DNA of 64,000 nt, from sequence record NC_055708.1. One strand, written 5' to 3'. The translations under genes were made by a program, and so were the position numbers. This document shows positions 11,634-19,562 of this stretch, one piece after another; the stretch's first letter is position 1; each line of letters begins with the position of its first letter. Under the pieces are notes generated by a model that was given only the letters and a program-made list of their open reading frames with translations, made no database searches and was not told where the DNA came from. This DNA is from Enterobacteria phage ATK47.

Positions 11634-11866
11634 GTATAGCAATTTACATTAAATCAGAATCATGTGATAGTTATCTGTACACATATGATAAAGATGTGTC
11701 AGAAGAAAAAATCAAAGACGACCTTAATACGGACCTTGATATGTTCTGTCCTATTGCAGATTACAAACTTGCGGTCTCTAATAGTGAAAGTCCATCTAAA
11801 GAAACGCGCATTGAAGAATTTATGTCTGAATTAATGGCCAAATCATGGGACCGAGATGATGAGTAA
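11630..11866 (+). CDS. hypothetical acidic protein
   Basis: ORF from ATG at 11630 overlapping upstream stop. Confidence 0.4.
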   Translation: MSIAIYIKSESCDSYLYTYDKDVSEEKIKDDLNTDLDMFCPIADYKLAVSNSESPSKETRIEEFMSELMAKSWDRDDE

Positions 11867-12314
11867 GAAAAATAAAGTGAAAGAGCTATCAGCCGGTATT
11901 ATTTTCCTTACCGAAGATAAAGAGTTATTCATGGGGCGTGTAACTGGTTCTCGTCCTAAAGGTGCATTAACTCATCGGTGGGATATTCCTAAAGGCCGTG
12001 TCGAACCTGGCGAATCTCCTATTGAAGCCGCTATTCGTGAATGCGAAGAAGAAACTGGGTTTACACAATATGACCCTGCCTTCCTGAAAGACCTAGGTGA
12101 ACATCATTACTCAGACAATAAGAATATTCATCTGTTCCTATATACCATCCCTGTAGAGCACGAGCAATTCAGAAACAGTGTTTGTAATTCCTATCATACA
12201 TTCCAAGACGGACGACAGATTCCTGAATTTGATGCATTCGCTTTAATTAAACCTTCTCAATGGGAATATGTAATGGGCAAATCGTTATATAAGGTGCTCA
12301 CTACCCTCCTATAA
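11856..12314 (+). CDS. nudE: Nudix hydrolase (NudE, e.1-like)
   Basis: Nudix box GRVEPGESPIEAAIRECEEETG; sits directly upstream of e as in T4. Confidence 0.75.
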   Translation: MMSKKNKVKELSAGIIFLTEDKELFMGRVTGSRPKGALTHRWDIPKGRVEPGESPIEAAIRECEEETGFTQYDPAFLKDLGEHHYSDNKNIHLFLYTIPVEHEQFRNSVCNSYHTFQDGRQIPEFDAFALIKPSQWEYVMGKSLYKVLTTLL

Positions 12315-16145: not shown

Positions 16146-16604
16146 ATGACTATCAATTCAGACGTTTTTATCCGCCGCAATAAACTCCGTCGAATCTTTG
16201 AAACGGAGTTCCGCAAAATAAATGCCAGTATAAAAGATGCTGCAAAGTCTCTTGGACTACCAGGCTTTCATATCAAGTATTCTCAACATCTCTTAGATCG
16301 TGCCATCCAGAGAGAAATAGATGAGAATTACGTTTTTGAATTATTTCGTAAAGTAAAAAATCATGTTAAAGAAGTTGCAGAATTTTTATCAATGCCGGCA
16401 CGTCCAGATGTTGATGAAGATTTTGTCGAAGGTGTAGAATATCGCCCAGGCCGTTTAGAAATAACTGATGGAAATCTTTGGTTAGGACTTACAGTTTGTC
16501 GCGAAAATCCGGCATTCAAAATGAAGACTCTTCAATGCAGAATGGCTATTATTAACAATAAACGACTACCAGGAAAAGCTTCTAAAGCAGTGATTAAAAT
16601 CTAG
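16146..16604 (+). CDS. regB: RegB site-specific endoribonuclease
   Basis: MTINSDVFIRRNKLRR..KYSQHLLDRAIQREIDE..GVEYRPGRLEITDGNLWLG..RLPGKASKAVIK matches remembered T4 RegB. Confidence 0.85.
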   Translation: MTINSDVFIRRNKLRRIFETEFRKINASIKDAAKSLGLPGFHIKYSQHLLDRAIQREIDENYVFELFRKVKNHVKEVAEFLSMPARPDVDEDFVEGVEYRPGRLEITDGNLWLGLTVCRENPAFKMKTLQCRMAIINNKRLPGKASKAVIKI

Positions 16605-16612
16605 AGGTAAAC

Positions 16613-17155
16613 ATGAGAAAAGCACTACTCGCTGGTCTATTTGCTCTTTCATTATCAGCACATAGCTCCGAGCATACTTTTAGTAATGTCCAACTCGATA
16701 ACTTGAATTATGCTTATCAGTTTGGGGAACAGTTTTCTAAGGATGGAAAATTTAAAACGCATGAAAATATGCATAAGAAAGGACTTGGATACATAATGGC
16801 CGCAATACTATGGCAGGAATCATCTGCTGGTATTAATCTTAAAGATAAGAAAGGTCACCATGCGTATGGAATGTTCCAAAATTATCTACCAACAATGAGG
16901 GCAAGAATTAACCAGCTTGGTTATAATATGACTGATGCCCAAATTAAGAAAATGCTATCTAAGCGGTCTAATTCAACCAGATGGGCTTATATCGAATTTT
17001 CTTATTGGTTAAATATACATAATGGGGATATAAGAAAAGCTATATCCTCATACAATGCGGGATGGAAGACAAGTGCTGGAAGTAAATATGCTTCTGAAGT
17101 CCTAGAAAAGGCTAATTACCTTAAATCAAATAAACTACTGGAAATAAAAGAATGA
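16613..17155 (+). CDS. secreted lytic-transglycosylase-like protein (SLT-type motifs)
   Basis: signal peptide; QESSAG, GMFQ and SYNAG resemble family 1 lytic transglycosylase motifs. Confidence 0.5.
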   Translation: MRKALLAGLFALSLSAHSSEHTFSNVQLDNLNYAYQFGEQFSKDGKFKTHENMHKKGLGYIMAAILWQESSAGINLKDKKGHHAYGMFQNYLPTMRARINQLGYNMTDAQIKKMLSKRSNSTRWAYIEFSYWLNIHNGDIRKAISSYNAGWKTSAGSKYASEVLEKANYLKSNKLLEIKE

Positions 17156-17499
17156 CCAAAATGTTAGCTTTAATAGTTGGCTTGGTTTCATTTAACGCTC
17201 TTGCTAATACTACATATACTGATGTAACGGAGTATACAAACAGAACGGCGTCTGATTATTGTGGTAAAAGTCAAGAGTGTAAAGTAGATTTTTCACAAAA
17301 ATTGTTATATGCGTATAAAGACGGAGAAAAAGATGGGGCGTCTAGTAGGTTCAAGGCGTCTACCTTAATTAAAAGATACTATAAAAAATGGCAAATATTA
17401 GAATGCTCGGTGGCGGAACCTAAAGATAAGGCAGCATGCAATTCTATGGTGGACCGCCTAGTTGACTCTTATACTAGAGGACTTGCAGCAAGTGATTAA
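17152..17499 (+). CDS. secreted protein with signal peptide
   Basis: N-terminal MTKMLALIVGLVSFNALA. Confidence 0.45.
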   Translation: MTKMLALIVGLVSFNALANTTYTDVTEYTNRTASDYCGKSQECKVDFSQKLLYAYKDGEKDGASSRFKASTLIKRYYKKWQILECSVAEPKDKAACNSMVDRLVDSYTRGLAASD

Positions 17500-17959
17500 A
17501 AACTATATCAAGGGCGATATTGTCGCCCTGTTTTCTAAAGGTAATAATATTGCTCATGGGTGTAATTGTTTTCATACAATGGGCGCCGGTGTGGCAGGAC
17601 AATTAGCAAAGGCTTATCCAAAAATTCTGGAAGCCGATAAACTTCAAACCGAATTCGGAGACGAGTCTAAACTCGGGACTTATTCGGTTTATGAAAAATA
17701 TTTTAAGACCCATAAAGCTTATTGCTTTAATCTTTATACGCAGTTTGAGCCGGGACCTAATTTTGAGTACTCTGCTTTAATGAATTGTATAATAGAATTA
17801 AATGAATTTGGAAAGAATAAGATAACAAAGCCTGTAATTTATATGCCAAGAATTGGTGCAGGTATTGGTGGTGGAAACTGGGATGTCATCGAAGAGATTT
17901 TAGATACGTATTCCACTAAACTAGAAATTGTGATTGTTGATTGGGAACCGTTATTATGA
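17483..17959 (+). CDS. macro-domain protein (ADP-ribose binding/hydrolase fold)
   Basis: NIAHGCNCFHTMGAGVAGQL and RIGAGIGGGNWDVI resemble macro-domain glycine-rich loops; start approximate (non-ATG). Confidence 0.55.
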   Translation: MQQVIKNYIKGDIVALFSKGNNIAHGCNCFHTMGAGVAGQLAKAYPKILEADKLQTEFGDESKLGTYSVYEKYFKTHKAYCFNLYTQFEPGPNFEYSALMNCIIELNEFGKNKITKPVIYMPRIGAGIGGGNWDVIEEILDTYSTKLEIVIVDWEPLL

Positions 17960-18168
17960 ATATACATTATCCACATCCATATGATCCAAAGAATAAGGCA
18001 GTAATTATTCGTCAATGGGAACGCATTTGTCGTACTAAATGTCCAATTAATAGTCCACATGATGTAGATAAAGACTACATCGGAACATTCGTTGAATATA
18101 CCTTTATTGATAAGAAAGGCCGTAAACAACATGTAGAAGAATATTGCTTAAAGGTGACATGGCTATGA
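17956..18168 (+). CDS. hypothetical protein
   Basis: ORF from ATG at 17956. Confidence 0.4.
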   Translation: MNIHYPHPYDPKNKAVIIRQWERICRTKCPINSPHDVDKDYIGTFVEYTFIDKKGRKQHVEEYCLKVTWL

Positions 18169-18371
18169 GTCAAACAAAAATTCTTACAGGTGCTAAATGC
18201 GAAAAATGCGAATGGCCTGTAGTTTTTGCTTTATGCAATGACGAAATGGCTTGTGATTTTGATTATTGGTGTTACTGTTCGAACAAAGGTTGTAGCAATC
18301 ATAAAGGTGAAGGGTTTTACTCAGGATTTTACCCTTACCCAGATTTCGTTAAAGAAGGTGAACCTAAATGA
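18159..18371 (+). CDS. Cys-rich small protein (putative Zn-binding)
   Basis: CEKCEW...CNDEMACDFDYWCYCSNKGC. Confidence 0.45.
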   Translation: MAMSQTKILTGAKCEKCEWPVVFALCNDEMACDFDYWCYCSNKGCSNHKGEGFYSGFYPYPDFVKEGEPK

Positions 18372-18550
18372 AATTGACTAAAGAAGAGAAAACTAAACTG
18401 TTTGAACTTATCCATGACCTATTGGATGAGCAAGCAGCCACCAATGCGTATGATGAATATGCTCCTTTGACGGACGAAGAATATCAAGCATTGTTGGAAT
18501 CATTTGACAGGAAAGAACAAGAACTCATTGACTACGTGAATTCGTTATGA
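18368..18550 (+). CDS. hypothetical acidic protein
   Basis: 60 aa ORF, ATGA overlap. Confidence 0.4.
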   Translation: MKLTKEEKTKLFELIHDLLDEQAATNAYDEYAPLTDEEYQALLESFDRKEQELIDYVNSL

Positions 18551-18732
18551 TTACTCGCCAACAGAAAGAAGAAATAATTTATTTGTCTAATGAAATACGG
18601 TTAGCAGAACAAGCTTATGAATGGGAACATTCATCGTATTTCTCGTCTAAACTGGCAAAACAACTTGCAACACAAGAATTGGAAGATGCTCAAAAAGCAT
18701 TGGATGATTATTTAGAACGAATTACCGAATAA
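18547..18732 (+). CDS. hypothetical protein
   Basis: 61 aa ORF, ATGA overlap. Confidence 0.4.
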   Translation: MITRQQKEEIIYLSNEIRLAEQAYEWEHSSYFSSKLAKQLATQELEDAQKALDDYLERITE

Positions 18733-18740
18733 GGACTCTT

Positions 18741-19322
18741 ATGGCTAGTTTAATTTTTACATATGCCGCTATGAACGCTGGTAAGTCTGCTTCATTACTT
18801 ACTGCTGCACATAACTATAAAGAACGTGGCATGGGTGTATTAGTTCTTAAACCGGCTATTGATACTCGTGATTCAAAAGGTGAAATAGTCTCTCGTATTG
18901 GTATTCGTCAGGATGCCAATATAATTACAAAAGACATGGATATCTTTGAATTCTATAAATGGGCTGCAGCACAAAAGGATATTCACTGTGTATTTGTTGA
19001 CGAAGCTCAGTTCTTAACTACTGAAAAGGTGTATCAACTTAGTCGTATTGTTGACGTATACAATGTGCCGGTAATGGCATATGGACTACGAACAGATTTT
19101 AAAGGTAATCTATTTGAAGGTTCTCAAGCATTAATGGCTATTGCCGATAAGCTTGTTGAACTTAAAGGTGTCTGTCATTGCGGTAAAAAGGCCACAATGG
19201 TAGCTAGAGTCACGGAAGACGGACTTCCAATTACAGATGGCAGTCAAATTGAAATTGGTGATACCGATAGATACGTGTCATTATGCCGGAAGCATTGGAA
19301 TGATTTGACAGGGTTGTTATAA
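18741..19322 (+). CDS. tk: thymidine kinase
   Basis: P-loop YAAMNAGKS, VFVDEAQF, C-terminal Zn ribbon CHCGKKA...CRKHW; 193 aa as in T4 Tk. Confidence 0.9.
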   Translation: MASLIFTYAAMNAGKSASLLTAAHNYKERGMGVLVLKPAIDTRDSKGEIVSRIGIRQDANIITKDMDIFEFYKWAAAQKDIHCVFVDEAQFLTTEKVYQLSRIVDVYNVPVMAYGLRTDFKGNLFEGSQALMAIADKLVELKGVCHCGKKATMVARVTEDGLPITDGSQIEIGDTDRYVSLCRKHWNDLTGLL

Positions 19323-19349
19323 ATACTAATATCTAACCAAGAGGTATAT

Positions 19350-19562
19350 ATGCAGCAATTAAACGAAAGACAACTTCGTAATCTTACTGTAACCCAATTG
19401 GATGAAATCCGAAGAGAATTAGGACATTCTATTTCTCATTTAAACGAGGATATCCGTCAAACTGGTTCTAAAGCTGATTATACACGCAAGCGCAAGCTGG
19501 AAAAATACCTCGCAGATGTTAAGGCCGTCCAAAGGCGAAAAATAAATACTGGCCAAAATTAA
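19350..19562 (+). CDS. hypothetical protein
   Basis: 70 aa ORF with SD AAGAGG. Confidence 0.45.

Follow-up and report, generated by a model that had tools for sequence, protein, structure and literature searches.

The DNA analysed here (a stretch of 64,000 nucleotides, called the window) carries, between the genes vs and tk.3, a reading frame whose two glycine-rich motifs had suggested, in a preliminary description made from the letters alone, a macro domain, the fold that binds or removes ADP-ribose. The locus raises the question of whether such a protein is truly encoded here and, if it is, which ADP-ribose marks it would act upon: those of a host defence or those that the phage's own ADP-ribosyltransferases make.

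The window matches Enterobacteria phage ATK48 (KT184310.1), a Mosigvirus, at 100% identity, and its coordinates are those of the ATK48 record minus 24504. All genes of the regB-to-tk block are co-directional on the + strand, and several of them overlap by a few bases (Table 1). The order of the block, regB, vs.1, vs, tk.4, tk.3, tk.2, tk.1, tk, matches that of T4, and the gene had therefore been correctly placed in the regB–tk accessory block.

Table 1. Genes of the regB–tk block and features of the tk.4 reading frame, in window coordinates.
Feature	Position	Strand	Basis
regB	16146-16604	+	
vs.1	16613-17155	+	
vs, valyl-tRNA synthetase modifier; upstream neighbour of tk.4	17152-17499	+	ATK48 and T4 annotation
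vs/tk.4 overlap, GTGATTAA	17492-17499	+	sequence
tk.4 / adfM (assigned ortholog), stand-alone macro-domain protein, 155 aa, GTG start, TGA stop	17492-17959	+	
First active-site region, H22-G-C-N25-C26 then loop 1 HTMGAGVAGQ (residues 28-37)	17555-17602	+	conservation, alignment
N80-L-Y82-T83-Q84 motif	17729-17743	+	conservation, alignment
Loop 2 (diphosphate-binding), P119-R-I-G-A-G-I-G-G-G-N-W130	17846-17881	+	conservation, SCO6735 alignment
tk.3, downstream neighbour; ATG overlaps tk.4 stop (ATGA)	17956-18168	+	
Three small ORFs between tk.3 and tk		+	
tk	18741-19322	+	

The longest open reading frame that contains both glycine-rich motifs spans 17462-17959 on the + strand and is closed by a TGA at 17957-17959. 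The preliminary description had called a non-ATG start, at TTG 17483; the first part of this held, while the codon itself should be placed 9 nt further downstream. Alignment of the DNA puts the GTG at 17492-17494 column for column under the start ATG of T4, Sf21 and Melville, and a start at this GTG yields 155 aa, a length equal to that of T4 Tk.4. The sole Shine-Dalgarno-like element, GAGGA at 17477-17481, lies 10 nt upstream of the GTG. Among annotated relatives, LF82-9 (protein 96.8% identical) has its start at the corresponding GTG, and LF82-41 has an annotated CDS of matching length and position (468 nt) which overlaps the end of vs. Two upstream TTG codons were considered and rejected, because the ATG codons of the relatives align with GTG 17492: TTG 17462, which opens the longest ORF, and TTG 17483, which is also only 1 nt past GAGGA, a spacing too short for a ribosome-binding site. 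Because the ATG of T4, Sf21 and Melville aligns with GTG 17492, and because the annotations of LF82-9 and LF82-41 agree with it, we assign the gene to 17492-17959, with 155 codons and a GTG start. This start codon lies within the 3′ end of vs, whose TAA occupies 17497-17499, and the two genes overlap by 8 nt. Because the GTG overlaps the vs stop, translation of tk.4 is probably coupled to that of vs.

The vs/tk.4 junction carries further features. A terminator-like hairpin followed by a T-run (AGGGCGATATTGTCGCCCT GTTTTCT) lies at 17511-17529, 20 nt into tk.4, where KGDIVAL is encoded; T4 and Sf21 retain it, Melville does not, and folding of an 81-nt segment gave z = -2.4. This hairpin may arise as a side effect of peptide conservation, or it may be an attenuator of read-through from vs. 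In the T4 transposon screen described below, no gene was depleted more strongly than vs in minimal medium, and because vs also overlaps the start of tk.4, mutations at the junction could hit two conditionally important genes together.

We compared the reading frame with that of T4. Of 89 nucleotide differences, 61 fall at codon position 3, and the changed codons comprise 49 synonymous and 25 non-synonymous ones. Because the differences concentrate at third positions and in synonymous codons, we conclude that the tk.4 frame is under purifying selection. Relatives of the window protein were found by tblastn in 2,799 of 50,697 phage records.

The protein scored 28.2 bits against the Pfam Macro profile (PF01661; curated gathering threshold 22 bits), with residues 25-139 aligned to profile positions 2-117 of 118, and it matched PHROG 335 (‘phosphatase’) with an E-value of 1.4e-66. 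An AlphaFold2 model built with 57 homologs (mean pLDDT 95.4, pTM 0.90) predicted the fold of a macro domain, a three-layer α/β/α arrangement with a central mixed β-sheet. Both motifs of the preliminary description were confirmed, HTMGAGVAGQ as residues 28-37 (17573-17602) and GAGIGGG as residues 122-128 (17855-17875), and they form the two glycine-rich loops, M30-G-A-G33 and I121-G-A-G-I-G-G-G128, which in macro domains grip the diphosphate and the distal ribose of ADP-ribose. The nearest structural and sequence neighbours all belong to the ALC1-like macrodomain class (TARG1, DarG, SCO6735, Poa1p). Thus, the macro domain proposed from the motifs was borne out by a PF01661 score above threshold and by a fold prediction that returned this very fold, and the window protein is a genuine macro-domain gene product.

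The closest characterized relative is T4 Tk.4 (NP_049723), to which the window protein is identical at 130 of 155 positions (84%) with no gaps. Both proteins are 155 aa long, both genes lie between vs and tk.3 on the same strand, and all family-invariant residues are kept. The differences consist of the start codon (GTG in the window, ATG in T4), the overlap with vs (8 nt in the window, 4 nt (ATGA) in T4), and 25 amino acids; loop 2 reads GIGGGNW here and GIGKGNW in T4. On the strength of sequence and gene order, we identify the window gene as the syntenic ortholog of T4 tk.4 (adfM, anti-DarT factor macrodomain).

The function of the T4 gene was recently addressed genetically. Screening of a T4 transposon library on E. 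coli cells with DarTG2, a bacterial defence which attaches ADP-ribose to DNA, yielded tk.4 as its one significant hit; a clean tk.4 knockout rendered T4 sensitive to DarTG2, and the gene was renamed adfM (bioRxiv 10.1101/2025.11.20.689424, November 2025). It was only with DarTG2 present that tk.4 insertions were depleted, and the authors proposed that Tk.4 strips ADP-ribose from DNA, stating of enzymatic removal that it ‘seems likely’ (10.1101/2025.11.20.689424). These functional data were obtained with one plasmid-borne DarTG2 system, at 30 °C and in minimal medium (10.1101/2025.11.20.689424). Thus, tk.4 is already known as a conserved T-even accessory gene whose T4 ortholog has a genetic anti-DarTG2 function. 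The genetic requirement for the T4 ortholog against DarTG2 (10.1101/2025.11.20.689424) supports the earlier proposal that the phage protein reverses an ADP-ribosylation-based host defence. The companion proposal, that it erases the marks of the phage's own ADP-ribosyltransferases, was left unsupported by the DarTG2-specific depletion of T4 tk.4.

Deposited annotations omit tk.4 in ATK48 and truncate it in one or more close relatives. The ATK48 GenBank record has no feature in the interval from vs to tk.3, leaving tk.4 unannotated. In the relative 348Ecol098PP (OR062947.1, 99.4% identical; 697-1074 of locus L003), the annotation opens the macro-domain gene at an internal ATG, corresponding to Met30, and the deposited protein lacks the conserved His22 and Asn25. 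Both the missing ATK48 feature and the shortened 348Ecol098PP protein are annotation errors caused by the non-ATG start, and counter-defence inventories which rely on deposited annotations will miss tk.4. Many GenBank records nevertheless name the gene, as ‘phosphatase’, ‘macro domain protein’ or ‘Poa1p-like family protein’, and the T4 record describes tk.4 with the phrase ‘A1pp phosphatase motif’.

The ATK48 record leaves three gaps in the vs–tk block, at 17500-17955 (tk.4/adfM), 18169-18367 and 18551-18740. The second gap contains a Cys-rich 75-aa ORF (18144-18371), known as RB32ORF111c in other records, and the third contains a 61-aa ORF (18547-18732; MITRQQKEEIIYLSNEIRLAEQ...). We considered the Cys-rich ORF as the segment missing in close relatives, and this proved wrong, since it is 100% identical in many of them. 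The 61-aa ORF is probably the ∼7% of 16600-19400 that is absent from the nearest relatives: in LF82-41 a 183-nt ORF is followed directly by tk, and the segment lacking there appears to be this ORF, which resembles a small gene gained or lost in the tk.1/tk.2 array. In the same window, the ATK48 annotation also includes further genes for counter-defence or related functions: an ORF after 57A (at the T4 position of 57B/acb1, the anti-CBASS nuclease), ipI, with the product line ‘internal head protein with nuclease inhibitor activity’, and nudE, whose product the record gives as a Nudix hydrolase that acts on ADP-ribose (738-1193, 1270-1557 and 11856-12314, respectively). ADP-ribose, the annotated substrate of nudE, would be the product of the macrodomain reaction.

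We examined conservation across 57 phage-like homologs, down to 38% identity. Residues H22, C26, G33, A35, D49, G62, N80, Y82, Q84, P119, I121, G122 and G124 were invariant, and N25 was conserved in at least 90% of the 57. In profile-to-sequence and MAFFT alignments, Gln84 stands where TARG1 (K84), DarG (K80) and PhiKZ gp104 (in its FPTK motif) have the catalytic Lys; its counterpart is also Gln in SCO6735 (Gln85) and in BT1257. The second catalytic residue of TARG1, Asp125, aligns with Gly126 of the window protein. N25 aligns with Asn27 of SCO6735 and with a conserved Asn of DarG, H22 with His24 of SCO6735, and G122 and G124 with Gly126 and Gly128 of SCO6735. SCO6735, from Streptomyces coelicolor, outpaces DarG and TARG1 in cleaving thymidine-linked ADP-ribose from DNA, and it rescues cells from DarT (PMC9411070). 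Its Gln85, kept in a productive rotamer by Asn27, forms a hydrogen bond with the distal ribose at the ring oxygen; the Q85A mutant is inactive, and N27S nearly so (PMC9411070).

Relatives are also found in bacteria. A scan of the genomes of 185,579 species identified 381 loci encoding relatives, and we analysed the best 80 of these 381 (L007-L086). The proteins of these 80 loci share 35-45% identity with Tk.4, have a median length of 155 aa, are often encoded on large chromosomal contigs, and come from Ruegeria, Desulfobacter, Verrucomicrobia, Hymenobacter and others. The HGCNC-type and N-x-Y-T-Q motifs are kept in all of these best 80, and at the position where DarG, TARG1 and PhiKZ AdfM have Lys, Gln is found in 57/57 phage-like and 80/80 bacterial homologs. 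When ORFs of at least 70 aa within the 4-kb flanks of the best 80 loci were clustered, neither a recurrent partner nor darT was found beside them; the clustering gave only synteny within ∼10 loci and antisense shadow ORFs of high-GC genomes. Because the flanks of the 80 loci share no neighbour family across genera, the bacterial members appear to be stand-alone enzymes, resembling SCO6735, and not captured antitoxins with a recognisable toxin. Beyond the genetics of the T4 preprint, sequence comparison thus adds the invariant Gln pattern, the lack of a DarG C-terminal domain and the lack of a darT neighbour. The analysis shows the fold, orthology, synteny and residue pattern of the window protein.

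We consider it likely that Tk.4 is a stand-alone hydrolase which clears ADP-ribose from thymidines on phage single-stranded DNA. According to this mechanism, the DarT2 toxin would ADP-ribosylate thymidines of single-stranded DNA during phage replication, the two glycine-rich loops of Tk.4 would bind the ADP-ribose, and Tk.4 would hydrolyse the N-glycosidic bond between ribose and thymine, restoring a replicable phage DNA template. Gln84, positioned by Asn25, would fill the catalytic position in place of the Lys of DarG. Because this position holds an invariant Gln and not Lys, the chemistry is expected to resemble that of SCO6735, with the Gln positioning the substrate and a water being activated, unlike that of DarG and TARG1. 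Transfer of the SCO6735 mechanism is uncertain, because equivalents of its Lys34 and Lys89 and its longer mobile loop are absent. In addition, protection need not be purely catalytic, because SCO6735 and DarG also inhibit DarT through direct binding (PMC9411070). For the window protein, a function shared with its T4 ortholog, enzymatic action on DNA and the roles just given to Gln84 and Asn25 are inferred from the comparison with its relatives; with 25 differences from T4 and a weak GTG start, its anti-DarTG2 activity and its expression are predictions.

An explanation based on binding is the least unlikely of the alternatives. Tk.4 might be a decoy or sponge which blocks DarT2 chiefly through binding, of the toxin itself or of its ADP-ribosylated product (stoichiometric inhibition or shielding), and not through turnover. 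Catalytically dead SCO6735 (Q85A), DarG (K80A) and TARG1 (K84A) still inhibit DarT in vitro, SCO6735 most strongly (PMC9411070), and another phage factor, AdfB of ICP1, neutralises DarT solely via binding; Tk.4, for its part, has neither the Lys of DarG nor the DNA-positioning lysines of SCO6735. However, among homologs whose identity falls as low as 35-40%, both from phages and from bacteria without a nearby darT, the Gln is invariant and the Asn is present in at least 90%, and the C-terminal DarT-binding domain of DarG has no counterpart in Tk.4. The conservation of catalytic residues where no darT is nearby therefore favours an enzymatic site over a toxin-specific binding surface, and we regard protection mainly by binding as quite unlikely.

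T-even phages possess three ADP-ribosyltransferases, and the marks of Alt, ModA and ModB are arginine-linked. Tk.4 could mainly erase ADP-ribose from protein or RNA, whether set by Alt, ModA and ModB or by other defences, with resistance to DarTG2 as one facet of this activity. To our knowledge, cleavage of arginine-linked ADP-ribose by ALC1-like macrodomains is not known, which argues against the Alt and Mod marks as its substrates. SCO6735 and TARG1 also act on ADP-ribosylated protein, namely auto-modified PARP1 (PMC9411070), and since the bacterial homologs stand alone with no darT partner, the ancestral role of the family would not have been that of a DarT antitoxin. In the T4 screen, however, tk.4 was the single hit under DarTG2 and was depleted under no other condition (10.1101/2025.11.20.689424), and we judge a primary role on protein or RNA to be very improbable. 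A role as a small-molecule enzyme, either a Poa1p-like ADP-ribose-1″-phosphate phosphatase or an O-acetyl-ADP-ribose deacetylase that tidies NAD-derived metabolites during infection, is most improbable, as the ‘phosphatase’ and ‘deacetylase’ labels are inherited from a historical domain name (A1pp) and not from assays on Tk.4, yeast Poa1p aligns a Ser with the invariant Gln, and the sole tk.4 phenotype found is DarTG2-specific (10.1101/2025.11.20.689424). Side activities of this kind occur commonly in macrodomains and might accompany an activity on DNA.

Our preferred reading, hydrolysis of the DarT2 mark on DNA, can be extended. Tk.4-type macrodomains, found in T-even-like phages, in many other phages and, as stand-alone genes, in diverse bacteria, pair the Gln found in SCO6735 with a loop as short as in DarG or TARG1, and have no equivalents of the lysines by which SCO6735 positions DNA. 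They might constitute a third mechanistic branch of DNA ADP-ribose erasers, which we think unlikely on present evidence. If this were true, a catalytic and DNA-binding solution not yet described may be in use, substrates may go beyond DarT2 marks to other ADP-ribosylated bases, RNA or proteins, and these proteins would be broad-spectrum counter-defence enzymes and not DarG mimics.

Among known systems, the closest in active-site residues are SCO6735 (PDB 5E3B) and BT1257 of Bacteroides thetaiotaomicron (PDB 2FG1), which are Gln-type, stand-alone ALC1-like macrodomains. The window protein shares with SCO6735 the catalytic-position Gln (Gln84, Gln85 in SCO6735) and the rotamer-locking Asn (Asn25, Asn27 in SCO6735), the residues that mark the subclass. 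In contrast, the lysines that position DNA in SCO6735 are replaced, Lys34 by Ala32 (Ser in T4) and Lys89 by Gly88. The window protein also lacks the mobile loop, which is five residues longer in that subclass; relative to BT1257, MAFFT placed a 6-residue gap in Tk.4 after Q-F-E-P-G, and the loop has the length found in TARG1 and DarG. The phage family, moreover, has invariant residues of its own, Cys26, Tyr82 and Asp49. We therefore rejected full membership in the SCO6735/BT1257 subclass: the assignment is partial only, with the Gln and Asn present and the long loop and both lysines absent.

DarG, the antitoxin of DarTG2 (PDB 5M3I, 5M31, 7OMU; NCBIfam NF048014), differs in several respects. 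Against the NF048014 DarG equivalog profile the window protein scored 31.9 bits, where the cut-off is 250, and the PADLOC DarG profile matched through its macro part only (positions 4-145 of 329, E-value 9e-9). Across the two DarG profiles, which have 329-338 positions, the matches extend over positions 4-146 alone. At 155 aa, compared with about 330-340 aa for DarG, the window protein lacks the C-terminal DarT-binding domain; Gln84 replaces the catalytic Lys80 of the T. aquaticus and M. tuberculosis DarG proteins, and the adjacent genes are vs and tk.3 and not darT. Identity as a DarG antitoxin was thus rejected on score, architecture, catalytic Lys and toxin neighbour.

T4 itself also encodes a stand-alone eraser that undoes a DarT mark on DNA, AdfN (gene 30.3, PMC11825919), the strategy proposed for Tk.4. 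Unlike Tk.4, AdfN has a NADAR fold and is an orphan antitoxin against DarTG1, acting on the guanosine-linked ADP-ribose left by DarT1 (PMC11825919), and it gives no protection against DarTG2.

A functional parallel is gp104 of PhiKZ, also named AdfM, a stand-alone phage macrodomain directed against DarTG2 which removes DarT2 marks from DNA in vitro (PMC13309987, Cell Rep 2026) and is imported into the phage nucleus (PMC13309987). PhiKZ gp104 is DarG-like, with an E-value of 9e-25 to M. tuberculosis DarG and an FPTK motif containing the catalytic Lys, and it matches the window protein only locally, over 23 residues. The name AdfM therefore stands for two macrodomain lineages that are unrelated, one of Gln-type (T4) and one of Lys-type (PhiKZ), and these comparisons indicate that two phage groups arrived at one counter-defence by way of separate branches of the macrodomain class.
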